Virus record (IMG/VR): IMGVR_UViG_3300031578_000012
Length of the DNA: 64,000 bases
DNA from: a virus
Direction: 5' to 3' (one strand)
The translations under genes were made by a program, and so were the position numbers. The notes under the pieces are model-generated. The model saw nothing but the letters and a program-made list of their open reading frames with translations, was not told where the DNA came from and did no database searches. Below are positions 1,466-63,972 of this stretch, one piece after another. Position 1 is the stretch's first letter; every line of letters starts with the position of its first letter.

Positions 1466-1725
1466 TTTAATACCATTAAACCGTGGGAGCTATCTATAGG
1501 GTAGATATTGAGAAACGGATGGAGAATACCGGTACATTTACTCGTCCTTTTTATGTAAAGGGGTATGAGTTGAGAGAGTACTATTTATTTGGTATTAAAA
1601 TTAAGTCGGCAAGTACTGCTGCTACTTATCCGGATAAAACAGAATAGTTTTAATTCTCCTTTTCTTTCTTGAAATCCTATCCTTGGGTTCCGGGGTTAGG
1701 ATTTTTATTTTTAAACACAAATCTC

Positions 1726-4700
1726 ATGGAAGGCACTAAAGGACAGGAATACATACTTCAAACATTTCATGCTGGTCTCATGCGAGAGATCGATGAGGAT
1801 ATGATCCCACCAAATAGCGGAATTGTTCTTAATAGTAAACATTTGCGGTTGGATGAAAAGGAGCATGGATCTTTGCAGGCTGTGAAGGGAGATGTTGAAT
1901 ATGATTCTATATCGCTAACCGATGATTTTTATTGGATTGGTGGGGTGTGGGTGGCCGGGTACTTGGTTACCTTTTGGCATGAGAATGTATCTGCCGGCAC
2001 TGATCGAACTGTCGTATACATGCTTGGTTCTGGCTCCCTTGAAAAGGTAGCCGAGAGTGAATATTTACCAGGTCGTGACGGGGAGGATATGAAGCATCTT
2101 GATATTGATGCCAACTATGAGACCGGGGAGATTTTTATTACAGACGGACAGATTACTCCTATTATATTAGATGTAAATGACCTATGGGCTCAGAAGGCTA
2201 CTACCAAGTATACTACTGCTTATGATGCTACTTTGTATAATATAAAGCTGATTAACCAAGTAAATCAACCTAAATTTATTTCATTAGACGATGTGGGGGC
2301 AGGGGCCGGTCTTCGTAAAGGGAGTTACGCCTATTCCTTACGTTATGGAATGTTTAATGGAGAGTATACTCCATGGGGGCCTCTTAGTCCATATATACCT
2401 GTTCCTGAGAATTATGACCGAGCTAATACAAATGTATTGATTCCAGGTTCCAAAGTATACGGAGGAGCTTCAGATTTGGTACCTTCCAGGTATGGTATAC
2501 GACTATTACTTCGGATAAATAATGCTCCAGGGTTTGATTTCATTGAACTTAAACGCTATGCTAATCAGAATAGCGCAGCATTAGGTTATACTCCTAGTGC
2601 AGAATTTTTGCGGGTTGGTATAGATGCGGGAGGTTCTACGGTTAATATTTCGGAGATGGCGGCGGATATTATAGAGTTTCAGGATACAGACAACAAACAG
2701 TGGATTGTATATGACGAGACTGAAATAGGTTTTAAAGCCTCCATAAAAAGCGCTAGAACTATTCGGTATTATGAAGGAAGAGTAATTTTGGGCGGTATTA
2801 AGTATGAGTCCAGAGAGTTAGAAGACTTGGATATTTTTATCAATGCACCAAGCGTGTCTAAGTTGGGTTATCCTATTAAAAAGAATCTTGGAACGGCGGG
2901 ATATACGGATATTAATAACCAAGTATTTAACAAAACACATAGATTGGGGGAGCGTTATGGATATGCTGCTCAACTAAGGGATGATCAAGGAAATGTGTTA
3001 TTTTCTGTTCCGTTAAAAAATGCTACTCAAGATTTTCGAAATTTTAAATTTCCGGAGCGCCGGGAAGGGGTACCCGCTTCAGAGAGAATAGAATTTGAAA
3101 ATCCAAGTGTTCCTTATTTGCAGGATGTAGATAGTGGTAGTGGTACGAGCATGGATTTTGTGTATGAAGTATGGAAGAGTGAGAACCATAAGAAAACCAT
3201 ATCAGGCAGTGCAAGACAGACGCGAACCATATTTGATGATGATGGTGATTATGCCTATAATCCAATAACTCCTACAGGAAGGGATCCTGGTTATGGGGGT
3301 AATGGGCGAAACTATAAAGGAATGGATTCGGTGTATTGTGATAGAGTGGAGGGAGAAGATCCTAGCGGCTATGCTTATGACCCTACTGGTTATGGTGCGT
3401 CTTTTTGGTCTACCGGGTTTAGATTAGGAGGAATAGATATATCTGCACTACCAGATTGGGTAGCCGGTTTTAGTGTGGTGAGAACCCCAGCAGCTGGTCG
3501 TGTAGTGTGCCAGGGTATTGCAACTTATGCCCTTTTAGAGAAAGCTCCAGGAGCTACTAATCCTGCTTTACAGAAAGATCTAGATAAGGTATGGTTTTAT
3601 TCTCCTGAATTTGATACTGTGATTGGAGACAAAGTTAAAATTTATGATGATATAAAAACCAATCCAGCTAGTTACTCTGTACAGCTGGTGAGTCCGTTAG
3701 GATTTTTTTCAGAGTTACAGTCGGGTTTTTATACTGGAGTTACTCCCGATTACGGTAAGTTGGATTTTCTTACCTGGGCGACTATGCAACATAATAATGC
3801 TGGTGCCATTAATCCTACAGATGCAAATTCTGAGATTGGAACAGGTAATGGTTATATTTCTTTTGGTAGGTTTAGGAATTGGCAAGGTAACATATATATC
3901 GCTACAGATCATAAATGGGGTATAGCTTCAGCCGTTGATGTGGACATAGATGGAAAGAATGGAAGGTCAAATTATTTAGAAATCACTTTAGATGTAGGAA
4001 CACCCGCTCCGGATCATTTTTATTATAATCCAGACTTAGATGCCGTATCTGGTGATACATATGATGATGGTATGGAGTTTCATGAACCATTATATATTGT
4101 TAATATTATTCAGGATGCCGTATCTATTCCTATAGATAATACTAACCTATATCAGGAAATTGGGCATTACCAGAAATTACGAAGTATAATCGGATACGGA
4201 TCCGGGGATGATAATCCTGTGTTTTACCTAGCGGATGAGCGTCCGGAAGATTGTATTGCTTCAGAGTCTTATTTAACTGGAGGAGCTACATCTGTTCGTT
4301 ATATTGAAGTTAACGGGCAGAAATGGTTAGATCTTAGCCAGCAGGATAGTACAGAACGGGCAGCAAGGAATCTGGACATACATAATGATGGGTATACTAC
4401 GATTTATTCTATTAATTATTATGGTACATATCTGGGTACCAGAGTGGACGGTACCGGAAGGCACTATATTATATTTGATCAGGAAAGCACAGGAACACAA
4501 ATCATTCCCGCAGGTGGGGATGAAATTACGGTGGTATATAATTCCAATGTACCCATTGATATTTATCTTGGAGATAATATAATAAGTCTTACCAGTTTTG
4601 TACCTATAGATTGTGAGATTAAAGATGCTTGGCTTGCGCATGACGGAGATAAAGAACAATCATTCAGGATTAGGGGTCCTATGCCTTACAGACAATGGCA

Positions 4701-6213
4701 TCTTAATGATCTTTATAGGCAAGCAGAGGTGGCTACTGAAAGTGGAGGTAAATATGTAGAACTTACTAATTTATTAAATTTAAACTATTTACGTCAGTGG
4801 CTTATCATGTTCCCGGTAGAGAGCACAGTAAACATTCCATTGGTATATAAAAATTTCTTTCCTCATCGAGCTTATGTTATGCGTCCTAATGATTATAGTG
4901 TTATGAAGGCCACCGAAGACGAAAGAGAGTACTATGCTAGAATAGGTATCGCGAGAGGCTACGCAGATGATTATCCAGGGGAGCAACTAATGTGGGGGTT
5001 TGGTGGTTTTCATTTTCCGGAAGGATCTAATTTTGATTATAGTAAACTAGTACCACAAAAGGCTCCCGGAAAACCAGCATCTTCAGAGAGTGAGGTGACT
5101 AACTATCCTAAAAGGTTTGTATGGACTGTTCAGAAATCGCCAAATAGATCTTCTTCTAATGCTCTTAAAAGTATTTTGCCTACCAATTTTTATGATCTTA
5201 GCCACTATAAATCGGAACAGATATCTATATTATATGATCAGTATTCTAGTCGGGGAAACAATTTATATGTGGTAACCGACAAGGCTGTAGGATTATTATT
5301 AACAGATAAAACTATTGTAAGAGATTTTGTAGGAGATTCTTTGGGTATAGCAGCACAGGAGGGGAACTTTATTCAGGGGGAACAATGGCTAAACGAATCT
5401 GTTGGATGTCCTGCCAATTTGTTTAGAGGAAAATCTGAGGGGATTATTAAAGTGGATAATAGGCCAATAGATATCCTTACATTTCCTACTATAAATGATA
5501 TAGCGGTTCTTAGAGATAATACTATTGTGACCCTTAAAGCAGGTATGCGAGATGTTATAGAGAGTGCTATAGGTCTTAAAGGTAATCAGTATTATGGATC
5601 TTCTGATGATGATAAACTATTTTCTTCTTTTGTATATTCCAAACGAAATGAGTTATGGATTAATGCTGAAGGTTCTCTCATTGTATATAGCTTTATAAAG
5701 AATAATTGGATTATGGAGCTGGATTTTGCTAAATATACGCAGGTTTTTCATTGTCCGTGGTTAACTGGGGCTTTAACGGATGGTAATGTTGTTATAGCTC
5801 ATGATAGGGTGGGTGATATTATGTATGCAGGAGGATTTGAGAATTATGAAACAACTGAGGGAGCGTGGAACATAGAAAGCAATCCTACGAAAGAGGTGAC
5901 TTTTGTGTGTAATCCGGGGCATGGCAGGACTTATGAATTTATAGATATTTATGTTAAGGCATACGCAGCTCCAACGGCTCAACTAACACCTAGTCGTGAT
6001 ATAGCTTACGGGGGTAATTGGGGAAATGCTGCAGACATTGCCCCTGGTGACTGGGATACTTATGGGAATAATTGGTTTTATGCTAGAATTCCAAGACGAA
6101 CAACAGTCGGGACTGTGGTGAAGGGTAATTTATTGTATGTAAAATTATCTGGAACAAATTTATATAATTTGAAGTATGTAAAGATAGGTTATAGACCTAT
6201 ACAGGGAGGTTAG
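1726..6213 (+). CDS. Large (1495 aa) virion structural protein, function unknown
   Basis: Uninterrupted 4.5-kb ORF inside the structural block. The ATG at 1726 is preferred over the TTG at 1669 used by the track. I can assign no catalytic motif. Confidence 0.8.
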   Translation: MEGTKGQEYILQTFHAGLMREIDEDMIPPNSGIVLNSKHLRLDEKEHGSLQAVKGDVEYDSISLTDDFYWIGGVWVAGYLVTFWHENVSAGTDRTVVYMLGSGSLEKVAESEYLPGRDGEDMKHLDIDANYETGEIFITDGQITPIILDVNDLWAQKATTKYTTAYDATLYNIKLINQVNQPKFISLDDVGAGAGLRKGSYAYSLRYGMFNGEYTPWGPLSPYIPVPENYDRANTNVLIPGSKVYGGASDLVPSRYGIRLLLRINNAPGFDFIELKRYANQNSAALGYTPSAEFLRVGIDAGGSTVNISEMAADIIEFQDTDNKQWIVYDETEIGFKASIKSARTIRYYEGRVILGGIKYESRELEDLDIFINAPSVSKLGYPIKKNLGTAGYTDINNQVFNKTHRLGERYGYAAQLRDDQGNVLFSVPLKNATQDFRNFKFPERREGVPASERIEFENPSVPYLQDVDSGSGTSMDFVYEVWKSENHKKTISGSARQTRTIFDDDGDYAYNPITPTGRDPGYGGNGRNYKGMDSVYCDRVEGEDPSGYAYDPTGYGASFWSTGFRLGGIDISALPDWVAGFSVVRTPAAGRVVCQGIATYALLEKAPGATNPALQKDLDKVWFYSPEFDTVIGDKVKIYDDIKTNPASYSVQLVSPLGFFSELQSGFYTGVTPDYGKLDFLTWATMQHNNAGAINPTDANSEIGTGNGYISFGRFRNWQGNIYIATDHKWGIASAVDVDIDGKNGRSNYLEITLDVGTPAPDHFYYNPDLDAVSGDTYDDGMEFHEPLYIVNIIQDAVSIPIDNTNLYQEIGHYQKLRSIIGYGSGDDNPVFYLADERPEDCIASESYLTGGATSVRYIEVNGQKWLDLSQQDSTERAARNLDIHNDGYTTIYSINYYGTYLGTRVDGTGRHYIIFDQESTGTQIIPAGGDEITVVYNSNVPIDIYLGDNIISLTSFVPIDCEIKDAWLAHDGDKEQSFRIRGPMPYRQWHLNDLYRQAEVATESGGKYVELTNLLNLNYLRQWLIMFPVESTVNIPLVYKNFFPHRAYVMRPNDYSVMKATEDEREYYARIGIARGYADDYPGEQLMWGFGGFHFPEGSNFDYSKLVPQKAPGKPASSESEVTNYPKRFVWTVQKSPNRSSSNALKSILPTNFYDLSHYKSEQISILYDQYSSRGNNLYVVTDKAVGLLLTDKTIVRDFVGDSLGIAAQEGNFIQGEQWLNESVGCPANLFRGKSEGIIKVDNRPIDILTFPTINDIAVLRDNTIVTLKAGMRDVIESAIGLKGNQYYGSSDDDKLFSSFVYSKRNELWINAEGSLIVYSFIKNNWIMELDFAKYTQVFHCPWLTGALTDGNVVIAHDRVGDIMYAGGFENYETTEGAWNIESNPTKEVTFVCNPGHGRTYEFIDIYVKAYAAPTAQLTPSRDIAYGGNWGNAADIAPGDWDTYGNNWFYARIPRRTTVGTVVKGNLLYVKLSGTNLYNLKYVKIGYRPIQGG

Positions 6214-6265: not shown

Positions 6266-6568
6266 ATGGGTGAAGAGAAGAAGGTACTTGCAAAGGCGGA
6301 GTTAAGTTTGCACTTACAAGAAACTGTAGGAATGCCTGATTATCAAGCTAATTGGGTACTGGATTCGTTGTTTGATTTTATAGCGAGTCATGTTAAAGAG
6401 GGTAATGAGGTTCTTTTGAAGGGTCTGGGTAGATTTGTATATGTGGATCGGGAAGGGACCAGGAAATCAAATTTAAGTGGGGATTTAATAGTTCCGCACA
6501 AACAAGTGAAGTTCCGTATCAATCAGCATTTAGCTAAATATGTACGGATAAATACAAGAGTTGAATAA
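6266..6568 (+). CDS. HU/IHF-family DNA-binding protein
   Basis: 100 aa. GLGRFVYVDREGTRKSNLSGDLIVPHKQVKFR resembles the beta-arm region of bacterial HU/IHF. The N-terminal helical part fits the family size. Confidence 0.8.
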   Translation: MGEEKKVLAKAELSLHLQETVGMPDYQANWVLDSLFDFIASHVKEGNEVLLKGLGRFVYVDREGTRKSNLSGDLIVPHKQVKFRINQHLAKYVRINTRVE

Positions 6569-6584
6569 TTAAAAATATATAATC

Positions 6585-7256
6585 ATGCCAAATACAGGGA
6601 TTGATGTAACTAAAGGAGCTGTCGGTGGTGCCGCTAAAGGTGCTATTATAGGAGGAAGTATTGGTGGTCCTATAGGAATGGGTGTAGGCACTGTAATTGG
6701 TGGCGTATGGGGCGGCATAACTGCAGGTAAGAAGTCAAAGGCTATGAGCCAGGCTCTGCAGAGGATAGAAGATTTACCTATGGTGGATCCTAACCAGGTA
6801 GCTTTTCAGGACCAGCTTGCCAGGGAAAAGAGAGCTGTCGAATCCGGTTTCACAACCGATTTCCAGGTTTCCCGGGATATTTTACAGCAAAGTCAAGCGG
6901 GGCAATTAAGCGTAGCTTCTAAGGTAGGAGCCAGCAATCCAGCTTTAGCTTTATCCATGATGGCTCAAGTGAACCAAGGTTTTACTACTGGGATGAATCA
7001 AGCTTTGGGTACTATTTCTACCAGGAGTTTAGCTTATACAACTATGATGGGAGATATGGTAGACAAGATTGCCAAGCGTAAATTAGATATTGAGGTGTTC
7101 AAAGCACAGGCTCAAATCGGGCAGGCTGCTGCCGAATATAAGGATAGAGTTGAACAAACAAATGCTGATCTTGCTTTTGGTATAGAAAAAGCTCCAGAGA
7201 TAAAAGAAGGTTTTACAGATTTGATTAGTAGAATATCTGGTGGTGGTGTACAATAA
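6585..7256 (+). CDS. Glycine-zipper protein, putative internal/ejection virion protein
   Basis: The N-terminus GAVGGAAKGAIIGGSIGGPIGMGVGTVIGGVWGGITAG is a glycine-zipper membrane-type segment. The gene lies in the structural operon. Confidence 0.6.
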   Translation: MPNTGIDVTKGAVGGAAKGAIIGGSIGGPIGMGVGTVIGGVWGGITAGKKSKAMSQALQRIEDLPMVDPNQVAFQDQLAREKRAVESGFTTDFQVSRDILQQSQAGQLSVASKVGASNPALALSMMAQVNQGFTTGMNQALGTISTRSLAYTTMMGDMVDKIAKRKLDIEVFKAQAQIGQAAAEYKDRVEQTNADLAFGIEKAPEIKEGFTDLISRISGGGVQ

Positions 7257-7271
7257 TTAAAATAAAATATA

Positions 7272-8999
7272 ATGCCTGATAACAACAATAATCCGAGTGT
7301 AGTTACTGATGAATCTGGTGGTAATTATGGCGGCATAAAACAAAATGCTGATCCGCTTGGTAGTGTCCAGGCGCAGTACTTACAGAATTTATGGCGTATG
7401 GCCCAGGAGCCTGTAAAAGCTCCCTTAACTCCCGCCCAGGAATTTCCTACGCTCAGTAAAGGTATTCAGGTAGGTACTTCAAGTACTGAGACTCTTGGTT
7501 CTCAGCCTATTTTTGGTGTTGGTGGTGGAGTAGTTAGTATGGCTGGTATTGATGCCATGAAAAAAGCAAGAAAGCAAGCAGAGATAGATTATTATAAAAG
7601 TTTGAAGCCGGATCCTACAGCTTTTGAATTGGGTGTAAAATTGGATAATCTGGCTCTTACAGACGAGTGGAATCAGAAGAAAAAGGAATTGGTAGACGCT
7701 TTACGCAATGAATTTTTAGTTGCTCTCGAAGGGCAGGAGGATGCCGACTTTAAAGCAGCTAAACTTGTTGAATCTTCTCCAGAATTAGCCGCTACGCTTA
7801 GGAAGATGGATAACACGGCTTCTATGGTTAATGTTGCTAGGAAGAAGTTGTTAGAGATTATTGAGGCAGCTGCTTATCCGGAGGAAGCTTATGTATCAAA
7901 AGAGATGATGGGAAGGGCGCAGGAATTTTTAGCTTTATTGGATGATCCGGATTATATATTAAATAATTCGGTTGAAGCTATATATCTAGCAGCCGAGAAA
8001 ATGCATACTAATACGAGCCTATATACTATTGTAGAGGGGGCTGTAACAAAGTATGGGGAGCGAACCCGTACTGATTTTCAGAGAGCTTCCAGCATGGATA
8101 CGGATGTTCGGGAATCATGGATAAAGAAGGAAATTACAGGGCCTCAGGAGGAGGATATTAAGGCTATGTATGAAAATATTGTTGCTCGTAATCCTTGGGT
8201 TGCTAAGGATGAAGATGCTGCAGCCTTTATTAAGAGGGAGTTGAAAGCTCAATCTGATTTTGTTGTGAAGAAATCCCTGGAAGATATTGTTAAGACAGAG
8301 AAGCAGAAGAATGTGGATGCAAGAAGCTTAGGTTTATTGGTCGATGACAAAGGAAAGATCATATTTGAGCCCATGAGTACGCCATGGGGGATAAAAGGAG
8401 AAAACGGAATTCATTATGGGGCTCATACTAATGGAGATCCGTACGCAATTGAATTGTATGCAGGTACTGAAATGTATATCAAAGACAAGGGACAAACCCT
8501 TAAAGTGACTTTACAGGATCCGGCTACTATGAATTTACGTGGCGAGTATACGTTAAAAGAGGGTAGAGGAGGAATTTTATCTGGTAGGTACATTGACGGT
8601 AAAGTAATTCTGGAGCAGAAAATATTATATGATCCAGATGAGGTAGTACGTAGTCAGACTAAAAAAGGCAAAACTTCTTTTGTTGGGGTTCCAACAGATA
8701 CTCAGGCTACCACTCAGGAAGCCCCATTTGTTGTATTGGATGAAAACGGTAATAAAATAACTATACGTGGTAGGTTTACAGCCGCTGTATCTTGGGATGA
8801 TTATAAGTCTGATGTAAGAGCAATAAATCCAGGCTTACAAGCTATTCATGGTGACTTACCGGGAATAGAGGATATTGATATACACGGTAGCCAGGATAAT
8901 CCAATAATTTTGGATGCTAGTAATACCAGGATAACTATTGATCCTAATAAATATTATGAACTTGATGGTACATTATATAAAGGAGATCAAATTGAATGA
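7272..8999 (+). CDS. Virion-module protein (575 aa), function unknown
   Basis: Long ORF whose stop overlaps the start of the giant gene (ATGA at 8996). Confidence 0.7.
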   Translation: MPDNNNNPSVVTDESGGNYGGIKQNADPLGSVQAQYLQNLWRMAQEPVKAPLTPAQEFPTLSKGIQVGTSSTETLGSQPIFGVGGGVVSMAGIDAMKKARKQAEIDYYKSLKPDPTAFELGVKLDNLALTDEWNQKKKELVDALRNEFLVALEGQEDADFKAAKLVESSPELAATLRKMDNTASMVNVARKKLLEIIEAAAYPEEAYVSKEMMGRAQEFLALLDDPDYILNNSVEAIYLAAEKMHTNTSLYTIVEGAVTKYGERTRTDFQRASSMDTDVRESWIKKEITGPQEEDIKAMYENIVARNPWVAKDEDAAAFIKRELKAQSDFVVKKSLEDIVKTEKQKNVDARSLGLLVDDKGKIIFEPMSTPWGIKGENGIHYGAHTNGDPYAIELYAGTEMYIKDKGQTLKVTLQDPATMNLRGEYTLKEGRGGILSGRYIDGKVILEQKILYDPDEVVRSQTKKGKTSFVGVPTDTQATTQEAPFVVLDENGNKITIRGRFTAAVSWDDYKSDVRAINPGLQAIHGDLPGIEDIDIHGSQDNPIILDASNTRITIDPNKYYELDGTLYKGDQIE

Positions 9000-11900
9000 G
9001 CGATAATCCATGGTTAACTAGAATAAAAGAGCCACCTTCGGTAGAGGAATTACCGGTTGAAGCGGCAGAACAGACCGGTCAAGCCGGTTTGCCTGTACCT
9101 AGTAATAATCCGTGGTTGGATAGGATTCCAAAGGAGCTAAGAACAGCGGTCAGTTCTACTTTTGTAGCGCCGGCTGTTCAGTATGATCCTATAAAGGAGC
9201 TTTTGGACCAGGGATTTACTTTCGAAGAAGCTGTAGAGACTGCTCACGCAGATTATGATAAGCAGCTTAAGAGCACTAAAAAATCTATCCGTGATGATAT
9301 CAATAATATAGTTGAGGGAGGTTATTATGATTATTACTATGGAGTAGGTACCAAGAAGCAAAAAGTGGATCGTAAGGTTAAGCGGGGTCAGGATGAACTT
9401 ACTGACAAGGCTTTAGATATTGCTCTTGACGAGATAAATAGAGAATTGTTTGAGGAGGTGGGAGACAATAGGCTTGGTATTGAGTTGAGTAAGATAGCCG
9501 GTATAGATATAGGAGAGATAACAGATCCGGTTGTATTTGGGAAAGCGCTGGATCAATTAGATCGTCAGGTAGCTTTAGATGTTAATAAGATATTACCAGA
9601 TGAAGCACTCAAGCGGGTAGACATTCAGAATCAAATCGATGCGGAGTTAGCAAGAAAGCCAACTGAAGAAGTACCTACAGATTGGCCTAAGATACGTAGT
9701 CTTCAGACTCAGTTATCAAGTACTGGAATTGTATTCTATGATCCTATTACTGGTGAGCGTGTGATGGAAGGAGAAGAGATGTCTGAGGAATCTCAGGAGG
9801 TATTAAATCTTATAAAACAGTTTGAACAGGAATATGGAGAGAGGCTAACCACTAAAAAAATGTTGGCCGATGAGTTCATGTTAACTTACGGAGCCTGGTT
9901 AGATGCTAAAGATAGGTTTGAAGAGCATGTCCTTCCATATAGGGAGGAAACTATTCGGCGTGGTGAAACCATGGTAGGTGATAGAGGAATTTCTTCTACT
10001 CATTATCTTTTCAGGCAAATGGGGGCTCCTCTTAATGTTAAAGCTTATCAAGCTAAGAAAACAGAACTGGATGCCCAGATGTATGCGTTATCTATGCTAT
10101 ACTGGGCTAATTATTCTCCAGAGAACATAAAGAAAGATTTAGGTTATCATTTACAGACTTCTGCAAAGGCGTTTACTACTGGGGCTCTAATTCCTATGAT
10201 GTTAAGATCTTCTGAATATAATGAATTATTCGGAACTCCAGATAGAGAAGTGTTGGATATTATGAAGAGGGCCATGTTAGAATTGAATATTCCTATGACT
10301 GAGGGAGAGAAAAAGAAATTTGATGTTACATTAGGGGAGAAAGTTAATCAATTAGGCTCTGGTTTATTTGGGTTCATGATACCTTTAGGGGCTTTAGGTA
10401 AAGTTGAGAAAGCTGCGTGGACTTTAACAAAGTTAGATGATGCTGTAAGATTATTATCTCAAGGCAGCAAATTAAAAAAGATATTAGCGGGATCAATAAA
10501 GGTCGCTTCTGAGGAAGGTAAATTTTTATTGGCTGGGGCTCCTGGTGGGGCTGGTGGTGGTTTCTCTACGGGTACGCAAATCGCTAATGCAGCTTGGGGT
10601 AGGGTAGTCAAATCGGGGGCGAATATATCTCCATGGACCAGGTTTGTTATGGGTATGGTTACGGGGGGTACCGGTATGACTGCTGGTATGTACGGGGCTC
10701 AGACTATGGAGGCTGGTGTAGAGGCTCTTCTTAGTGATTCTAAACTTAGTCATGAGTTGAAGACTATGTTTGGGGATCTGTCTATTCCAGAGGAGCGAAA
10801 GGAATTCTATGAAGAGTTATTAGCTAGGGTTATGGTGAACATGGCATTTGCTGGGGCGCATTCTAGGTTTTCTGATCCTAAGTATGATGGGTTGAAGCAA
10901 ATGGAGAAGGATTTTCGTAAGGCCGGCCGTGAAGAAGATGCAAATGAAGTTAAAACTGTGATAGATGGGTCTAAGCAGGCTGATAAGATACTGTTGGAGC
11001 TTGGATCACAGGGGCGTATAGGTAAAGAACTTACTCTTGGTGAGGAGGGTATGCGGATGCGTGAGAGCAATAAAGAAGCAGCACGTAGGGCCAAGGCTGA
11101 AAAATTAGCAACAACTTATCAGGAAAGGCTTACAAAATTGAAAAGCGAACAGCCAGAACTATTTTGGTCTGTAGATGTCCCTGACCCAGAGGTTCTAGCT
11201 ACAGCTGCTGAGACTGGTCGTTTAGTAGATGTTGGTGGGGGTATGGGTCTTGTTACTCCAGAAGGGAGGATGATAGGGTTGTTTAGGTACAAACCTGGGG
11301 CTAAAGGAGTAGCTAAAGCCGTACAAGAGAAGAGAATTGAAGAAGGAGGCGATCATTTAGATGTTTATGATATTACCCCAGAGGGTAAGAAAACATCTTT
11401 GGTTGATAATTATAAGAAGCAGGGATTAGTGGTTGTCGGAAGGCTTAAGTGGAATGAGAAGTTGGCTCCAAAGGATACTCCACAAAAAGTAAAAGATCAG
11501 AAGCCAGATGTAGTATTTATGGTGTTGGATAAGAATAATGTATTAAAGCCGGAGGATCTTAATAAAAGATTTAACTCTTATAATAAGGTTGTAGAGTATC
11601 AGCAGGAGATGGTGGCTGAGATGCGAAGAAAACAAAAGACAGGGGAAGCTACCGATGCATTTTTTGGTGATGTATCTGCAGGAAGGAAAGGCATGTCTGA
11701 CGTTGAGTATGAACCTACATTAGAAATTACTCCCGAAAAGCATGGTGAATTTATTAAGCATTATAATCCTCATAGAGGTAATTTTGATGATCACATAAGT
11801 AAGTCTATACCAGGTCACAAAGAGATTCAGGTCGCTACAGGAGATGCCATTATTAAAACCATATCTAGTGGTAAGGTTGCGGATATAGGGGGTTCTGAGA

Positions 11901-14900
11901 ATAGTTGGGCCAAGGCTATTACTGAAATGTCTAAAGGTAAGATAGAAACCGTTACAGTGGATCCACAGGAAGACATGCATAGACATAGTGATAAGACTCC
12001 TGTTAAAGGAAATACTTTTGTGGAGAAACCAATAATGCATGAATGGGAGGGTAAAACTCCGTGGAAGCCAAAACGTGAATATGATGTAGTTCATGAGAGT
12101 ATGGTGTTTCAGTTTGTCTCAAACGAGCGTAAAGCTCAACTTGATTATATCAGGGATAATGTGTTGAAAAAGGACGGGCTGCTGTTGTTAGAGGAGAAGT
12201 TCATCCCGAAAGGCAGTAAAGAATCCGAGACGAAGACGGATGAATTTGGAAGAAAAATAGTCACTGATTCAGAAATGGAAGTAGCTGAGGGGTTGGATAT
12301 GATTCATGGAGCACTTCAGGAAAGTAAGGGTAAGTTTACTCTTACAGATAAAATAAAACAAGCGGAAATAGTGGGTAAAAATCTTGTTATAAGAGATGCT
12401 GACCATATCAATGAACTTAAGAAAGATGCTAGTGATGCTATAAAGAAAATAGATAAGGCCAAAAAAGATGGAGGCGTTTTCAAGATAGGAGAGATGGAAG
12501 TTGAGGGAGTCGAACTTAACATGTGGCGTGACAATTATGAACGGAGAATATATCGTTTAGATAAATTACAGGAGTTTAAGGAAGATAAAAATGTGGTATC
12601 ACAATTAGAGTGGTCAAAGAATGAAGCTAAGAAGGATGAATACAAGGCCAAGTATTTCAAGCCAGAGGAATTGACGAAGAAGAAGGAAGAGGTTATCTTA
12701 GGCATGCATGAGAACATGGTTTCGAATGAAGCTCTGGAGCAGCTTCTGGTAGAAAGTTTTGATCATGTGTTTCGGTATTGGGATAGCGGTAATTTTAAAG
12801 GTTATGCGGCAACCAATAGTTTGACTAAAGCTCAGGCGTTTGCACAAAATATAGGAAATACAGGGCAGAGTGAGTTTAGTTCTTCTCCAATAGAGTTTAT
12901 TAAAGGAGGTTCTGGAAAGCCTCCGAAGACTCCTATTCAACGCAGGATTGATAGAGCATTAGGTATACCAAGAGAAAAGAAGAAAATTGTTGTAGAGGAG
13001 TATGCTGCCTTAAAGGATCAATTAAGGTTAGAAGCAAAGGTAGGGAAGGAGATTGTAAGTAATGCTGCAGAGGTGCGGGAGATATTTGCGGATTTCATTC
13101 GGTCCAAGAAAGGTATTGCAGGACTGGATGCTAAACTTTCTACAGCAATGATGAATAAGATAAATAGGATAGATTTTACTAAGCCAAAGACCATCCAGGA
13201 AGCTATGGATTATATTGATCGGGTTTTAGAAGATGCTAGATTTCGTCAGGAGTTGATTGAGTTTGAAAGTACATATGAGAATATAGAAAAAATCGTTGAT
13301 CCAACTACTTATGAGAAGAAGGAGGGTGGGATTTTAAAAGGTAAGGATAAGTTCTTTATTGAGACTAAAGATCAGTTGGTCGAGTTAGGAAAGGAGGCCA
13401 GGGAAGGTAATTGGGAAGAAGCTCAACAGAAACTTTTGGATAAAATAAAGAATCTTGAAGGGGAATATCCTACGGCTGAAGAGTATTTGGAAATCGAGCG
13501 TTTAGGTTTCCAGGGGATTTTAAACGAGACCTTCAAGGGAAATTTAGCAGAACTTAAAGGCAGGTTTCAGGATCTTAAGGAGATACGTAAAGACGGGCGT
13601 ACTAAAGCAGCAGCAGCTCGTATTGCTTATAGGGACGCTATGGATACTGTTAGGGGCTCTATATTTAATATTCTTACAGGGCAGGGAGAGAAAATGCCGG
13701 GATTGACTCCATCTGAAAAAGCTAATTTTAGAATGTCTTCAGCTAAGAAATACTTGAGTAGGCTTGATTGGGTAGCTACAGATTCTTGGCCTACATATCT
13801 TGATAAGTTATCAAAGAACGATAAGACTTCTAAGCCTTATCGGAGTTATCTTAGCACGTTTCTTCTTGATATGAAGACCGCTTCTGAGCAGGGAGAGTAT
13901 AAAGGCCTTGAAACCCATATAAACACGATATCAGATAAATATAAAGAAATTAATGGTTTAAAGTCTAGTAGGGATGTGGTTAAATTATCCATAGAACGTA
14001 CTAAAATGATTGAAGAAGTGTCTTGGATAGATGATATATCTGGAGAACGGAAGGTAGAGCAGATGACTCAGAATCAAATGTATGATAGGTGGATGAAACT
14101 GCAGGATCCAACACTGGTTCGTAGTATGGAGACCATGGGATTATTAAGAGAGGGTGAACTAACAAATAAAGCTAAAGCCTTGGAGGAGGCGTTGTTACCA
14201 GAAACAAGAGAGTGGGCAGATTGGCAATTATATGAGTTTTATCCGGAATATTATAAAGGTATAAATGAGGTGTATCGTAAAATATTTGGTACAGATATGT
14301 CGTATAATCCATTTTATTCTCCATTATTCCCGGAGGTAGAAGGAAAGAAGGCTCCACGTGAAGATCAGCTATTGGCTGATGTTACCATTAGAAATACTGC
14401 AAATAATTCTAGCTTAAAGGCTCGTACCAAGCATGGGTTAACTTTGCGTACTATGGATGGGGACAGGGTTTTAATTAACCATGTACAGAAAATGGAGTTT
14501 TTTAAGAATTGGGCAGAAACTATACGTACTTATGAAGAAATATTTTCAAATGGGGATATACGTGAAACTATACGACAGAATTTTGGTGATAAATATGTGG
14601 AATATGGAGATTGGTGGATAGATCAGTTTGCCCGTAGGCCTAAACAGATTACGGAGTTAGATCGTGTTACAACTAAGATCCGCACAACATTTACTTTAGG
14701 TTCATTAGGTCTTAAAGCTGTTCCGCTAGTTAAGCAGCTTACTTCCATACCGGCTTTTATGGATAATATACCTATCAAAGAGTTTGTTAATCCTGTAACT
14801 GCCGTAGATAATGCAACTGATTTTTTTAGTAAGAAAAAGAGATCACAATTAGAGGATACAGAAGGATATGGTTGGGATGTATTAATGACTTCTGTTTATA

Positions 14901-15901
14901 TGCAGGAGCGTGTACGTAAAGGATGGGAGCGAGATGTTATGCTTGTTATGCAAAAGGATTATCAAAACGTTTTGAATTCTGGCCTGGATTGGAAGAGCAA
15001 CATGATGTTTTTGACAAAATGGGGAGATAGGGCTGCTATTTTTGTAGGGGGCTGGCCGGTGTATAAATATCATTATAAACAGGCTATTAATGATAATTTG
15101 TCTCCTAAAGAAGCACATACTATAGCGATAAAGGAGTTTGAAACAGCTGCTAGGAGTTCACAGCAGTCTGGTATGGTGGCGGATTTATCTTTTGTACAGC
15201 AAGCTAATCCATATTTAAAAATGCTGACTATGTATAAGACAGCCCCATTTCAATATCATAGAAAAGCGGTTGGAGCTGTCCGTAATTTAATAGCTGGTAG
15301 GGAGACCTGGGATAAGGCTCTTAAGACCGTAGCAATTTATCATGTCATTATTCCAGCTATGTTTCAATTGACTGCAAATGGGTTTAATTGGGACGGGGAA
15401 GAAATGTTACGTTCTGCTTTGATAGGTAATTTTAATAATATGTTTGCTGTAGGTGATGCTGTTCAGGGAATAATGGATATATTAGGTAAGGAGCCGTGGT
15501 CTTATCAAGCTTCTCCTATTGAATCTGTTCCAGTTGATGTGGCAAAAGTTATAGGGGATTTAGGAGCCCTTGATTATGATGATATTACTTTCTATGATGT
15601 GTGGGAAGCATTAGATAATTTGGCTAGGCTTACTGGGAATGTAACCGGGTATCCTACAGACGCTTCTTATAATACACTAGATGGACTATTAGATATTATT
15701 TCAGATGATACTAATTATCCTGTTCGTAGGATTCTTGGGTGGAGTGAGTACAGATTAGATCGGGGATATGACCTGCCAAACGCGCTTCAAAATTGGTTAT
15801 TGAACAATCCGGATGCAAGTTTAGAGGAAATAAAAACTAAGGAATTAGAGATAAAAAATATTGAAGGAAGAGAGTTGAAGCCTAGGATTATAGGCGAATA
15901 A
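8996..15901 (+). CDS. Giant (2301 aa) polyvalent virion protein with an embedded CmoA-like SAM-dependent methyltransferase domain
   Basis: 6.9-kb ORF. The segment at nt ~11760-12230 carries NFDDHISKSIPGH, VADIGGSENSW, VTVDPQEDM, DVVHESMVFQFVS and LKKDGLLLLEEKF, which are collinear with the CmoA motifs FDERV..SVPGY, VYDLGCSLG, AVDNSPAM, ASMVVLNFTLQFL and LNPGGALVLSEKF. Gly-rich and hydrophobic segments flank it. Confidence 0.85.
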   Translation: MSDNPWLTRIKEPPSVEELPVEAAEQTGQAGLPVPSNNPWLDRIPKELRTAVSSTFVAPAVQYDPIKELLDQGFTFEEAVETAHADYDKQLKSTKKSIRDDINNIVEGGYYDYYYGVGTKKQKVDRKVKRGQDELTDKALDIALDEINRELFEEVGDNRLGIELSKIAGIDIGEITDPVVFGKALDQLDRQVALDVNKILPDEALKRVDIQNQIDAELARKPTEEVPTDWPKIRSLQTQLSSTGIVFYDPITGERVMEGEEMSEESQEVLNLIKQFEQEYGERLTTKKMLADEFMLTYGAWLDAKDRFEEHVLPYREETIRRGETMVGDRGISSTHYLFRQMGAPLNVKAYQAKKTELDAQMYALSMLYWANYSPENIKKDLGYHLQTSAKAFTTGALIPMMLRSSEYNELFGTPDREVLDIMKRAMLELNIPMTEGEKKKFDVTLGEKVNQLGSGLFGFMIPLGALGKVEKAAWTLTKLDDAVRLLSQGSKLKKILAGSIKVASEEGKFLLAGAPGGAGGGFSTGTQIANAAWGRVVKSGANISPWTRFVMGMVTGGTGMTAGMYGAQTMEAGVEALLSDSKLSHELKTMFGDLSIPEERKEFYEELLARVMVNMAFAGAHSRFSDPKYDGLKQMEKDFRKAGREEDANEVKTVIDGSKQADKILLELGSQGRIGKELTLGEEGMRMRESNKEAARRAKAEKLATTYQERLTKLKSEQPELFWSVDVPDPEVLATAAETGRLVDVGGGMGLVTPEGRMIGLFRYKPGAKGVAKAVQEKRIEEGGDHLDVYDITPEGKKTSLVDNYKKQGLVVVGRLKWNEKLAPKDTPQKVKDQKPDVVFMVLDKNNVLKPEDLNKRFNSYNKVVEYQQEMVAEMRRKQKTGEATDAFFGDVSAGRKGMSDVEYEPTLEITPEKHGEFIKHYNPHRGNFDDHISKSIPGHKEIQVATGDAIIKTISSGKVADIGGSENSWAKAITEMSKGKIETVTVDPQEDMHRHSDKTPVKGNTFVEKPIMHEWEGKTPWKPKREYDVVHESMVFQFVSNERKAQLDYIRDNVLKKDGLLLLEEKFIPKGSKESETKTDEFGRKIVTDSEMEVAEGLDMIHGALQESKGKFTLTDKIKQAEIVGKNLVIRDADHINELKKDASDAIKKIDKAKKDGGVFKIGEMEVEGVELNMWRDNYERRIYRLDKLQEFKEDKNVVSQLEWSKNEAKKDEYKAKYFKPEELTKKKEEVILGMHENMVSNEALEQLLVESFDHVFRYWDSGNFKGYAATNSLTKAQAFAQNIGNTGQSEFSSSPIEFIKGGSGKPPKTPIQRRIDRALGIPREKKKIVVEEYAALKDQLRLEAKVGKEIVSNAAEVREIFADFIRSKKGIAGLDAKLSTAMMNKINRIDFTKPKTIQEAMDYIDRVLEDARFRQELIEFESTYENIEKIVDPTTYEKKEGGILKGKDKFFIETKDQLVELGKEAREGNWEEAQQKLLDKIKNLEGEYPTAEEYLEIERLGFQGILNETFKGNLAELKGRFQDLKEIRKDGRTKAAAARIAYRDAMDTVRGSIFNILTGQGEKMPGLTPSEKANFRMSSAKKYLSRLDWVATDSWPTYLDKLSKNDKTSKPYRSYLSTFLLDMKTASEQGEYKGLETHINTISDKYKEINGLKSSRDVVKLSIERTKMIEEVSWIDDISGERKVEQMTQNQMYDRWMKLQDPTLVRSMETMGLLREGELTNKAKALEEALLPETREWADWQLYEFYPEYYKGINEVYRKIFGTDMSYNPFYSPLFPEVEGKKAPREDQLLADVTIRNTANNSSLKARTKHGLTLRTMDGDRVLINHVQKMEFFKNWAETIRTYEEIFSNGDIRETIRQNFGDKYVEYGDWWIDQFARRPKQITELDRVTTKIRTTFTLGSLGLKAVPLVKQLTSIPAFMDNIPIKEFVNPVTAVDNATDFFSKKKRSQLEDTEGYGWDVLMTSVYMQERVRKGWERDVMLVMQKDYQNVLNSGLDWKSNMMFLTKWGDRAAIFVGGWPVYKYHYKQAINDNLSPKEAHTIAIKEFETAARSSQQSGMVADLSFVQQANPYLKMLTMYKTAPFQYHRKAVGAVRNLIAGRETWDKALKTVAIYHVIIPAMFQLTANGFNWDGEEMLRSALIGNFNNMFAVGDAVQGIMDILGKEPWSYQASPIESVPVDVAKVIGDLGALDYDDITFYDVWEALDNLARLTGNVTGYPTDASYNTLDGLLDIISDDTNYPVRRILGWSEYRLDRGYDLPNALQNWLLNNPDASLEEIKTKELEIKNIEGRELKPRIIGE

Positions 15902-49252: not shown

Positions 49253-50410
49253 TTATACCCTCTCCAGTATTTCTGTAGCCAGATCAAATATACGGTTATA
49301 GAAATATTGGGTAGGGACCTTTCTTCCAAATGATTTTTCCAGGGATAGTTCATTGCTATCTTCTGGTGAAATTACTCCCATTTCTTCACCATATTCGCTC
49401 TCTTTATAGATAGCCAAGTTGTAAATATTAAGAGCATACAATTTACTCTTTGATTCATTGATAAAATCAAGAGTATGGATATAGGTGACTATATCCTCTT
49501 CTACAATTCCAATTATCACATTCAGGATAACCTTCAGTCCTTGGTTATGAAGCTTGATCACGGCCGTACGTATCAGCTTCTCACTTGCCGGTTTATGCAG
49601 GGCTTTCAGGATCCTATCATTAAACGATTCTACTCCCATCTCTACTATCCTTACTCCCAGGTCCTGTAGCTCTTCTATGAATCCAGGCTTGTTAAGCTGG
49701 GCTGCTGTAGTCTGAATGATGAACCCTTCAAACTCCGGGTTGTTAGTCCGGACTATATCATACGCTTCCTTCAATATATTATAGTTGGGAGCCTGTCCAA
49801 AGGTAGAATCAGCAACATATACATACTGAAATCTCAGTGACGTAGAAATACGTGTTGCCTGGTATAATATTTCCTCCCTGGTCTTCTCCTGGATCCAGTG
49901 CTGAGTAGTACAGAACTTACACTTATGCTTGCACCCTGTAGATAGAGTGATACGCGGGATAGTGGTTGTATTCTCAAAATGTCTGTAGTTAAGCGCATAT
50001 TTATAAGGTACACCCAGATACTCTGCCAAGGCTTCAGGATTATCGAAATATTTCAAGCCTGGTATTTGAATATATCCCCCAGTCAGGATCTTGGCTTTAC
50101 CTGTGTATTCCCGGACAAACTTTTCGATAAATGATTTGTTCACATCCATTACAGAGAATAGGATATAGTCATAATGATTAATGTTTGTAATTGGCTCGCT
50201 ATTTTCCAGGACCAGGAAATCAGTATTTATATAACCATCCAGAAAGCCATCGATTTCAGCTATCCATAATGGAATCTCCCAAAAATGCGTTCCCTTCTGG
50301 TAGCCTTTTTTAAGCCTGTAAATATCCTCATAATACCTGCTGGCCTTTGTGTCCTGGTAGGGACCATTGATCAGCTTTGAGCTTACTTGTATGTATAGTA
50401 ACTTCTTCAT
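49253..50410 (-). CDS. Radical SAM enzyme with N-terminal ~150-aa alpha/beta domain
   Basis: CX3CX2C motif (C160-KHK-C164-KF-C167) in the context TLSTGCKHKCKFCTTQ. The 385-aa size and Cys position fit B12-binding-type (class B-like) radical SAM architecture. Confidence 0.8.
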   Translation of the reverse strand: MKKLLYIQVSSKLINGPYQDTKASRYYEDIYRLKKGYQKGTHFWEIPLWIAEIDGFLDGYINTDFLVLENSEPITNINHYDYILFSVMDVNKSFIEKFVREYTGKAKILTGGYIQIPGLKYFDNPEALAEYLGVPYKYALNYRHFENTTTIPRITLSTGCKHKCKFCTTQHWIQEKTREEILYQATRISTSLRFQYVYVADSTFGQAPNYNILKEAYDIVRTNNPEFEGFIIQTTAAQLNKPGFIEELQDLGVRIVEMGVESFNDRILKALHKPASEKLIRTAVIKLHNQGLKVILNVIIGIVEEDIVTYIHTLDFINESKSKLYALNIYNLAIYKESEYGEEMGVISPEDSNELSLEKSFGRKVPTQYFYNRIFDLATEILERV

Positions 50411-63078: not shown

Positions 63079-63097
63079 AGTTTCTGGTTTAAATGAG

Positions 63098-63188
63098 GGC
63101 AGAAGGGGGGATTCGAACCCCCGGGTAGTAATTACTACTCCAGATCCAGTAGGAAAAGCCAGAAACCTACTGGCTATTTTACTTCCGC
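63098..63188 (-). ncRNA. 91-nt tRNA-like element TL7 with G3-U70 acceptor stem and non-canonical core
   Basis: Acceptor GCGGAAG/CUUCUGC (G3-U70), T-arm GGGGG-UUCGAAU-CCCCC and discriminator C. The core forms hairpins GCCAG-UAGGUUU-CUGGC and GUAGU-AAUU-ACUAC, but I find no standard D or anticodon arm. Confidence 0.55.
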
Positions 63189-63338
63189 CTACCATAATAT
63201 CGTCCCCGCCGAAGCGGGGGCCTGACTATGCAGCTACCTTGTGGCTCCATACAGGACTTAATTGAACAACTTTGCCAGTTATTCCTCAGTGATTTCAATT
63301 CGTGTTGTACTCTGCATGCTGTCAAAACATTCAGCCCC
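63189..63338 (-). ncRNA. ssrA: tmRNA coding piece (5' GGGGCUG, P2 5' strand, tag frame, UUCG-capped hairpin); 3' boundary uncertain
   Basis: RNA: GGGGCUGAAUGUUUUGACAGCAUGCAGAG...CUGGCAAAGUUGUUCAAUUAAGUCCUGUAUGGAGCCACAAGGUAGCUGCAUAG-UCAGG-CCCCGC-UUCG-GCGGGG. The candidate tag frame at 63276..63226 ends ...SHKVAA-stop. Confidence 0.75.
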
Positions 63339-63585
63339 GTAAGATACGATCTGGGGGTACGCCCAGGAGAAGCCTACCACGTATGGTAACCCGGCTCCCA
63401 GGACCCCAGATCGCGAGTTCTTACAAGAGGGGAGGAAAATTCTAGTCTAAGCACCTATCATTTACGCTCCTCAACGTATGATTTATGGTACTACTAGAAT
63501 CATCCCTCAAGACCATTGCCGTAAAACACCCCTTGGTCGCAAAAGCGTCCGCAGGGCTTGCGGTTGGATTTTTTATCATAAGTAG
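63339..63585 (-). ncRNA. 247-nt structured intervening segment between the tmRNA acceptor and coding pieces
   Basis: Hairpin 63549-63563 (CCGCA/UGCGG). A long rod at 63428-63511 (AUUCUAGU/ACUAGAAU plus GAGGG/CCCUC). A long rod at 63348-63412 (GAUCUGGGG/CCCCAGAUC, capped by UACCA-UACG-UGGUA). Confidence 0.6.
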
Positions 63586-63650
63586 TGGAGCTGCGGGGCT
63601 TCGAACCCCGGTCCAAACATGCTTTCCTTCACGAATATAACGAAATCAAA
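63586..63650 (-). ncRNA. ssrA: tmRNA acceptor piece (P2 3' strand, GGAC, T-arm, CAGCUCC-A 3' acceptor strand); 5' boundary uncertain
   Basis: RNA: UUUGAUUUCGUUAUAUUCGUGAAGGAAAGCAUGUUUGGAC-CGGGG-UUCGAAG-CCCCG-CAGCUCC-A. It pairs with the GGGGCUG and the three P2 segments of the coding piece downstream. Confidence 0.75.
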
Positions 63651-63670
63651 GAACGTATTTGTTAGAAATA

Positions 63671-63678
63671 TATACTAA
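63671..63678 (-). promoter_or_regulatory. TTAGTATA box upstream of the tmRNA acceptor piece
   Basis: Variant of the AGTATT box, 29 nt upstream of the first P2-pairing nucleotides. Confidence 0.35.
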
Positions 63679-63808
63679 ATATCTAACAAAAATAAAATTG
63701 GTCGCGTAGTTTATCTGTTCCCATCTTGTCTTATAAGAACGTCTTCTATGCAAGAGCAGACCGGCTATACTGATTACTCATACCCTAGCCTAATGATATG
63801 CACCTTTG

Positions 63809-63892
63809 ATGCAATGAAAGGATTCGAACCTTTGACCTGAAGCACGTTCTATGCCGCGCGGCAACCGCTCTATCCAACTGAGCTACATTGCA
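63809..63892 (-). tRNA. 84-nt tRNA-like gene with canonical acceptor, D- and T-arms but no recognisable anticodon arm
   Basis: UGCAAUG-UA-GCUC-AGUUGGAUA-GAGC-G-[27 nt GUUGCCGCGCGGCAUAGAACGUGCUUC]-AGGUC-AAAGG-UUCGAAU-CCUUU-CAUUGCA-U. The 27-nt centre does not form a 5-bp/7-nt-loop arm. Confidence 0.5.
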
Positions 63893-63899
63893 TACCTTG

Positions 63900-63972
63900 T
63901 AGCGGGGACAGGAGTCGAACCTGCAGTCGAAAGCTTATGAAGCTCTTGAGTTACCATTACTTCCACCCCGCA
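63900..63972 (-). tRNA. tRNA with anticodon CAU (Met, or Ile2 type), 73 nt, CCA not encoded
   Basis: Acceptor UGCGGGG/CCCCGCU (U1-U72 mismatch), anticodon arm AGAGC-UUCAUAA-GCUUU, variable CGACU and T-arm GCAGG-UUCGACU-CCUGU. The D-stem is weak. Confidence 0.75.

Follow-up and report, generated by a model that had tools for sequence, protein, structure and literature searches.

The 2301-aa protein and its methyltransferase domain

The window analysed here is the whole 64-kb stretch (64,000 nucleotides, one strand) of the IMG/VR virus record IMGVR_UViG_3300031578_000012. The gene under study lies at 8996..15901 on the plus strand and encodes a giant multidomain protein of 2301 amino acids (aa), of the polyvalent type, in which a CmoA-related methyltransferase domain adjoins a GNAT-like domain. 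The product was taken from the open reading frame (ORF) list and its translation, and the start ATG overlaps the stop codon of a 575-aa ORF just upstream. The frame had been called in a preliminary description of the window; it is real, and an assembly artefact is excluded, because the identical protein (P0001) was found on at least 12 metagenome contigs from JGI, ENA and Logan assemblies. Ten of these contigs span 50-200 kb, some of them 80.5-82.7 kb, and the phage genome is about 80 kb, of which about 16 kb lies outside the window. The source is an uncultured marine-type podovirus with a P22-type portal. Searching 50,697 phage records with the gene by megablast gave no matches.

The methyltransferase domain occupies aa ~885-1300 (11648..12895, plus strand) and was delimited using PHROG 4752, a family profile, hhalign and AlphaFold/Foldseek. 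Phrog_4752, labelled ‘tRNA methyltransferase’, matched aa 929-1075 (E = 4e-11), and Pfam Methyltransf_23 gave a sub-threshold match to aa 957-1067 (E = 2e-4); no Pfam model is dedicated to this family of CmoA-related phage methyltransferases. Homologues were aligned in two blocks, aa ~870-1085 and aa ~1200-1300. Between the blocks, after strand 5 and before the lid helices of the fold, lies a private, largely helical insertion of 116 aa (aa ~1085-1200; 12248..12595, plus strand), which appeared as a gap against all relatives in BLAST and MAFFT alignments. No homologue of it was found by phmmer among 170 relatives, and it is present in the 2301-aa protein alone. The lid helices and a YWDSGNFKGY hairpin come after it. 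A ‘complete’ methyltransferase core had been placed by the preliminary description at nt ~11760-12230 (aa 922-1078). The core is there, but the segment ends after strand 5 (LLLLEEKF) and represents only the first two thirds of the domain, since the insertion separates it from the lid helices and the hairpin.

Modelling of aa 863-1320 with AlphaFold gave a mean predicted local distance difference test score (pLDDT) of 78.7, with values above 90 in the Rossmann core and low to moderate values in the insertion. Comparison of the model with the PDB in Foldseek yielded 400 chains at E < 1e-3, and the best 50 of the 400 had the fold of class I methyltransferases dependent on S-adenosylmethionine (SAM). 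Full-span matches were obtained with CysG/BelI (template modelling (TM) score on the target 0.72-0.77) and CmoA (0.60-0.63); the best E-value belonged to MM_2633 (PDB 3DTN), a less full match, with a TM-score of 0.52-0.53. Column statistics were taken from an alignment of 167 relatives of the domain. The SAM-binding motifs I, II and IV are intact (D963/G965/S967, D989 and Q1039/F1040), and nearly all of the 60-odd family-conserved positions are kept. Together the profile scans and the model show a SAM-binding-competent class I methyltransferase fold, in line with the SAM methyltransferase domain named in the preliminary description, which had asked for such scans and for AlphaFold and Foldseek as a check. 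A phmmer search of the PDB with the domain gave nothing useful and a profile was required, and a segment that kept the insertion and lacked the C-terminal third gave only noise against NCBIfam.

Using a profile of 23 family sequences against all PDB sequences, end-to-end alignment (~220 residues) was obtained with CmoA only (1IM8, 4IWN and 4GEK; E = 0.01-0.04), and other PDB methyltransferases were matched around motif I only. The family profile was aligned to E. coli CmoA in hhalign with a probability of 95.5% and E = 1.4e-8 over 205 columns; segments of the CmoA sequence used for this agree with the PDB alignments. Once the insertion had been removed, TIGR00740 (CmoA) was the best of 18,950 NCBIfam models (E = 2.7e-6, model positions 24-232 of 239), and it was also the top model for the relatives P0006 and P0010. 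The five pairs of CmoA motifs listed in the preliminary description were all aligned in that way by both HMMER and hhalign. On these comparisons CmoA is the nearest characterised family.

CmoA (TIGR00740; PDB 4GEK, 4IWN and 1IM8, and including the CmoA of Synechococcus phage S-B43) has the same class I Rossmann fold. Further features held in common are an N-terminal helix motif F..xI..S[IV]P, a helical lid after strand 5, a W..NF.G hairpin and, in CmoA numbering, the SAM-site residues D62, G64, S66, D89, Q136 and F137 together with R143, E164, K165, K185, K198, N234 and F235. CmoA Tyr39 is mostly Phe in the phage family and is His in the 2301-aa protein. CmoA is a free dimer of 247 aa, whereas the phage domain sits inside giant proteins, here with the lid insertion.

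The TIGR00740 score was 27.2 bits with the insertion removed and 28-32 bits in two relatives, and the equivalog cut-off of 193.3 bits was not reached. In CmoA, Arg199 forms a salt bridge with the carboxymethyl group; it is kept in CmoA and not in ordinary methyltransferases (PMC3663124). The corresponding column, on whose placement HMMER and hhalign concur, is variable in the 167 relatives (A 33, K 24, Q 22 and others) and holds Lys1230 in the 2301-aa protein. With a score so far under the cut-off and Arg199 not conserved, membership of the pathway for carboxy-SAM and 5-carboxymethoxyuridine (cmo5U) is not indicated. The domain is not a CmoA orthologue; it would be of the same ancestral stock as CmoA and appears to form a phage-restricted family of its own. 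The module had been described as CmoA-like; this stands as regards the nearest characterised family and falls as regards orthology and the cmo5U pathway.

The near-invariant residues of the family were compared with their CmoA counterparts (family/CmoA: H933/M31, E968/L67, K973/L72, D1030/S127, H1033/V130, E1034/L131, E1066/S163, E1210/F178 and K1213/H181); D1263 and K1268 are also near-invariant. In CmoA the methyl group of SAM has hydrophobic surroundings, thought to be needed for ylide chemistry (PMC10491745), and the polar residues that replace mostly hydrophobic CmoA residues argue for a chemistry unlike that of CmoA. No carboxymethyl-transferase partner (CmoB, CmoX or TglF-like) was seen among the ORFs scanned, a set that leaves out many small ORFs and the ~16 kb outside the window, and CmoB was not searched for; the CmoX-type C5-methylase motif (PCQ/ENV) occurs in no real ORF of the window.

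CysG/BelI and MM_2633 (PDB 9FCL, 9FCE and 3DTN) are small-molecule carboxylate O-methyltransferases with 10-12% sequence identity to the phage domain, CysG/BelI being the best whole-domain structural matches. CysG/BelI have a calcium site made of His-His-Asp (PMC11408123). A site of this type was rejected for the phage family, in which both His fall on the CmoA-like Q-F by a residue-spacing estimate.

About 20 relatives reach upstream of the methyltransferase into aa ~700-875 (11093..11620, plus strand), where a discrete GNAT-like domain was delimited using a 21-sequence alignment (A2), AlphaFold and Foldseek. Its AlphaFold model had a pLDDT of 95.7. The best 46 Foldseek matches in the PDB were nearly all GNAT acetyltransferases, with two methyltransferases among the others (probability up to 0.99, E about 2e-3, TM-scores 0.34-0.52); the alignment A2 gave no Pfam match and no PDB sequence match. 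The GNAT resemblance, put forward earlier as a weaker call, is thereby supported at the level of the predicted fold. The loop between strand 4 and helix 3, in which the pyrophosphate-binding motif for acetyl-CoA (Q/R-x-x-G-x-G/A) was sought, reads KPGAKGVAK here and is not conserved in the family. From domain coordinates, the domain is present in 21 of the 167 relatives and adjoins the methyltransferase every time, mostly upstream and in ~5 downstream. This constant adjacency argues for a functional pair.

Giant relatives and the polyvalent pattern

Relatives were collected by running the profile against all of 1.84 billion cluster representatives (50% identity), which yielded 1022 representatives with the methyltransferase module at E < 1e-3 and 425 at E < 1e-30. 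The best 150 are mostly proteins of 1000-5600 aa with the methyltransferase in the middle. Eighteen giants were annotated with Pfam, giving ART-PolyVal and DUF7178 in five each, Acetyltransf_1 (GNAT) in four, LPD38 in two and InPase in one.

A second point of contact with these giants is the C-terminal module of the 2301-aa protein (aa ~1690-2250; 14063..15745, plus strand), which includes a single strongly hydrophobic helix at aa 2108-2130. This module of ~560 aa was matched by BLAST in P0002, P0003, P0004, P0054, P0063, P0122 and P0138, and PHROG 9880, a function-unknown family with a profile of 2231 positions, matches it in five of seven members. It had no matches in the PDB, and in PHROGs only family 9880 was found. 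P0054 shares the module and carries ART-PolyVal; P0004 shares it and has an N6/N4 DNA methylase (N6_N4_Mtase) instead of the CmoA-like domain. The middle region (aa ~1310-1690; 12923..14065, plus strand) is common to a few giants, with a phmmer match to P0064 (E = 2e-64) and BLAST matches also to P0003 and P0063, and no family was assigned to it.

The N-terminal part was not recognised in relatives: the first 862 aa gave no matches as query in a homologue search, and neither aa 1-700 nor the 116-aa insertion was matched by phmmer in 170 relatives. It begins with a duplicated short motif, NPWLTRI (aa 4-10) and NPWLDRI (aa 38-44), located by regular expression on the translation (9005..9127, plus strand). 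The duplication is present as first described; it was absent from 130 other giants searched in the same way and is unique to the 2301-aa protein. The closest full-length relative, P0063, has another duplicated N-terminal motif, PDFGAFGV/PDFAAFGV (aa 11-42), and paired short N-terminal motifs may represent a common docking or packaging signal. By composition, aa ~440-620 (10313..10855, plus strand) form a Gly-rich, low-charge, hydrophobic, glycine-zipper-like region, with Gly at 18% and charged residues at 16% over aa 501-600. This region and the C-terminal helix bear out the Gly-rich and hydrophobic segments reported in the preliminary description. A Pfam scan of the whole protein recognised no PolyVal or LPD domain.

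A phage is thought to deploy polyvalent proteins as its earliest weapons, ahead of the reading of its own genes. The enzymes known from them are DNA adenine methylases, ADP-ribosyltransferases (ARTs), peptidases, kinases and RNases. Domain classes described for them include ARTs, LPDs, inorganic pyrophosphatases and GNAT (Iyer et al., 2017, PMC5512222). The 2301-aa protein resembles them (PMC5512222) in joining unrelated effector-type domains, GNAT-like and methyltransferase, in one polypeptide, in the position of its gene among phage virion genes (P22_portal upstream, tail fibre downstream) and in its link, via shared modules, to the hallmark domains ART-PolyVal, LPD38, InPase and N6/N4 DNA methylase. 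A conserved scaffold with interchangeable enzyme cassettes is the polyvalent pattern. The protein had been taken for a polyvalent protein, and the recurrence of both its methyltransferase and its C-terminal module in giants with these hallmark domains supports that; it belongs with the polyvalent-type giant proteins of phages, a kind already known. What appears to be new is a widespread, phage-restricted cassette in which a CmoA-related methyltransferase is paired with a GNAT-like domain. A search of the text of Iyer et al. (2017) turned up, as its only methylases and GNATs, DNA adenine methylases of the EcoKI/TaqI type and a pair of GNAT families resembling RimI; a methyltransferase related to CmoA did not come up in the text searched (PMC5512222).

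The DarB protein of phage P1 is likewise large and virion-associated, and it carries a methyltransferase into the cell along with the DNA (PMC5512222). DarB consists of LPD36, an N6-adenine DNA methylase (EcoKI/TaqI-like, with NPPY/F) and an SWI2/SNF2 helicase, and its phage, P1, is a myovirus that has packaging partners specific to Dar. The DarB type, which the preliminary description had invoked, was rejected as a model: the 2301-aa protein has no helicase, LPD36 or methylase match in Pfam, and no DPPY or NPPY occurs in any real ORF of the window.

Among phage records searched by tblastn, only Maribacter phage Panino, a podovirus (PMC11590407), has a relative, a coding sequence of 1829 aa (CDS0069) labelled ‘tRNA methyltransferase’. 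Panino is the only cultured phage with the methyltransferase domain. Its gene lies among genes annotated as virion structural and is followed directly by an array of tRNA and tmRNA genes. The former name of CmoA is probably the origin of the label ‘tRNA methyltransferase’ that PHROG 4752 and the Panino gene bear. The product of CmoA is a cofactor, and tRNA is not its substrate (PMC10491745). Nothing about function therefore follows from the label, which is a mislabel in both PHROGs and GenBank.

In IMG/VR, 112 stretches encode a relative, in ORFs of two size classes, one of ~480-560 aa and one of giants that reach ~5600 aa. None of the neighbours of the gene in the window is common to 79 viral loci or to Panino, which indicates that the cassette moves between unrelated phages. 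In 185,579 prokaryotic species (one genome each) only two loci were found, both in metagenome-assembled genomes (MAGs) of Bacteroidota, and one of them (L090) is a phage contig within its MAG, as it has a terminase gene. An origin from a prophage or an integrative and conjugative element was rejected on these grounds (two loci only, at least one of them on a phage contig), and outside (virulent) phages the polyvalent-type domain is essentially absent.

The L090 locus (9980-13489; ‘Arcicella MAG’ contig JAYVIV010000078.1, 78.9 kb, with a terminase large subunit) carries two standalone methyltransferases of 293 and 306 aa, 1.7 kb apart, beside an IS605 OrfB/TnpB-like gene. A divergent standalone sister subfamily was found on 196 plasmids, including megaplasmids of Rhizobiaceae. 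On MOBQ plasmids of 5.7 kb in E. coli and Salmonella it lies directly upstream of a LysE-family exporter; examples of the subfamily are 553-2082 of the E. coli plasmid NZ_CP075707.1 (L087) and 7938-8960 of S. meliloti CP050513.1 (L086).

Genomic position and proposed role

The order of genes upstream of the window was read from a longer contig. A P22_portal protein (733 aa) is followed by eleven co-directional genes, a very large protein of 1495-1514 aa (window 1669-6213, plus strand), an HU-like protein of 100 aa (window 6266-6568, plus strand; Pfam Bac_DNA_binding, phrog_379) and the genes for the 223-aa, 575-aa and 2301-aa proteins. Several further genes separate the last of these from a tail fibre (764 aa, with a Peptidase_S74 C-terminus and matches to tail-fibre PHROGs), after which the replication module begins. 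From the portal gene to the tail-fibre gene, all genes of the block run in one direction. The two genes directly upstream of the 2301-aa gene (223 aa, glycine-zipper-like, and 575 aa; 6585..8999, plus strand) are, by position, putative ejection-trio partners, and the 223-aa protein gave weak Gly-zipper and tape-measure matches. Pfam and PHROG searches gave nothing useful for neighbours of 295, 1514, 575, 246, 882 and 682 aa. The HU-like protein precedes the putative ejection trio in the block of virion genes and may be a packaged histone-like protein. The second very large protein of this block, at window 1669-6213, has no Pfam and no PHROG match.

In P22 (gp7, gp20 and gp16) and T7 (gp14, gp15 and gp16), the genes for ejection or internal-core proteins lie between head or tail-accessory genes and the fibre. 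The three genes here likewise form a trio of rising size, of which the first is small and glycine-zipper-like, and the largest, as T7 gp16, has an enzymatic domain. They differ in that neither sequence similarity to the P22 and T7 ejection proteins nor a transglycosylase domain was detected, and the assignment is positional. The Gly-rich stretch, the hydrophobic helix and the position of the gene would fit an internal or ejected protein.

The reading towards which we lean is that the 2301-aa protein is an ejected polyvalent effector of a P22-portal-type podovirus, delivering a SAM-dependent transferase. Its scaffold is the N-terminal region with the Gly-rich stretch plus the C-terminal PHROG-9880 module, and its cassette is the GNAT-like domain plus the methyltransferase. 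The protein would be packaged in the capsid and would leave through the tail with the DNA, alongside its 223-aa and 575-aa neighbours. In the cytoplasm the tandem enzyme would draw on the SAM of the host, and perhaps on acyl-CoA as well, and would modify a single conserved target of host or phage, probably an anionic one, before any expression of phage genes. The near-invariance of the active-site residues across unrelated phages implies that the target is single and highly conserved. Catalytic activity, the nature of the target, packaging and ejection are all inferred here.

The chemistry is most likely ordinary acid/base-assisted methyl transfer, not carboxy-SAM synthesis or cmo5U modification, as the invariant constellation of His, Glu, Lys and Arg suggests acid/base-assisted transfer of a methyl group to an anionic substrate. 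With low confidence, a small molecule or cofactor-like target is preferred over nucleic acid, because the full-span relatives CmoA and CysG/BelI act on small molecules (PMC11408123, PMC10491745).

A number of observations weigh against an ejected, active transferase. Gene position is what packaging and ejection would be deduced from, and Pfam found no lytic or hallmark ejection-protein domain, no MuF and no portal fusion in the 2301-aa protein. Four family-conserved positions are altered in it (G969N, N991Q, A1012P and F1013I), and these substitutions, together with the 116-aa lid insertion, may mean reduced or altered activity. No acetyl-CoA motif can be recognised in the GNAT-like domain, for which the TM-scores were modest. 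The one ground for calling the target probably anionic is the many invariant Lys/Arg residues. In the sister subfamily the acidic residues of motifs I and II are missing (DIGGSEG becomes CLGMAEG or NLGAAES, and the Asp of motif II is lost). Its members may not bind SAM canonically, and SAM-dependent catalysis is therefore not universal in the wider family.

Alternative explanations and wider meaning

It is unlikely, though to be taken seriously, that the 2301-aa protein is not ejected, being a late structural, assembly or cytoplasmic protein (for example of the tail or hub), or that its enzyme domains have decayed into structural filler. Such an explanation would suit a packaging assignment drawn from gene position, an N-terminal 700 aa and an insertion without homologues in the searches, the four substitutions at conserved positions and the plasmid relatives without SAM-binding acidic residues. 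It is countered by the integrity of nearly all family-invariant residues, those of the SAM site included, and by the occurrence of an identical protein sequence in many samples. The cassette moreover recurs in giants that have nothing else in common and that carry bona fide polyvalent effector domains; such shuffling is expected of selected effector modules and not of filler.

Rather doubtful is a functional carboxy-SAM synthase, or another consumer of SAM, delivered with the DNA, which would feed a carboxymethyl modification of DNA (compare CmoA-CmoX of phage S-B43) or drain or alter host SAM and so blunt defences. In its favour are the end-to-end alignment with CmoA as the nearest characterised family, the pocket residues held in common (R143, E164, K165, K185, K198, Q136, F137, N234 and F235) and the Lys at the Arg199 position of the 2301-aa protein; phage CmoA enzymes are known and have been suggested to deplete SAM (PMC12783734). 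The Arg199 column is nevertheless variable across the family, the score is 27 bits where the equivalog cut-off is 193, residues of the hydrophobic pocket of CmoA are replaced by invariant His, Glu and Lys, and the motif search found no CmoX-type candidate in the real ORFs of the window, CmoB not having been part of that search.

A related proposal, which we regard as improbable, is that the virion-delivered module transforms SAM itself (into carboxy-SAM or another derivative, or by consuming it) and that the adjacent GNAT-like domain acts on the same small molecule. If this were true, hundreds of virulent phages would send a cofactor-remodelling enzyme into the cell just as their DNA enters, disabling SAM-dependent defences (type I and III restriction, BREX and SAM-AMP signalling) or priming the hypermodification of their own DNA.

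Equally hard to credit is a methyltransferase acting on tRNA or other RNA of host or phage at the onset of infection, for example against anticodon nucleases: the PHROG 4752 and Panino labels, the tRNA and tmRNA genes of both the source phage and Panino and the many invariant Lys/Arg residues, which could bind RNA, speak for it, and against it stand the cofactor-making role of CmoA, which deprives the label of force (PMC10491745), the small-molecule enzymes that are the full-span structural neighbours (CmoA and CysG/BelI; PMC11408123), the absence of an RNA-binding accessory domain from the Pfam scan of the 2301-aa protein and the rarity of tRNA genes at other loci (3 in all within 10 kb either side of the methyltransferase at 46 other viral loci).

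The repertoire of polyvalent-type proteins thus gains a large enzyme cassette, a CmoA-related SAM-dependent transferase often accompanied by a GNAT-like domain, with at least 425 clusters at 50% identity and almost absent from cellular genomes and cultured phages. Identification of its target could reveal a new mechanism of host takeover or anti-defence, and would test whether CmoA-type chemistry has been recruited for conflict at the injection stage.

A general linkage of the methyltransferase to tRNA genes was rejected from the count at the 46 loci; the connection to tRNAs and tRNA mimics drawn in the preliminary description does not hold as a general one. In the window itself, a tRNA cluster lies at 63097-63972 (minus strand) and comprises tRNA-Glu, a permuted tmRNA-like gene (tag GKVVQLSPVWSHKVAA) and tRNA-Met; the same cluster contains an odd tRNA with a 2-nt ‘anticodon’ call. 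Elsewhere in the window, a 385-aa ORF at 49253-50410 (minus strand) gave a weak match to a radical-SAM PHROG (phrog_27238, E = 3e-4), and its product would be another SAM-using enzyme.

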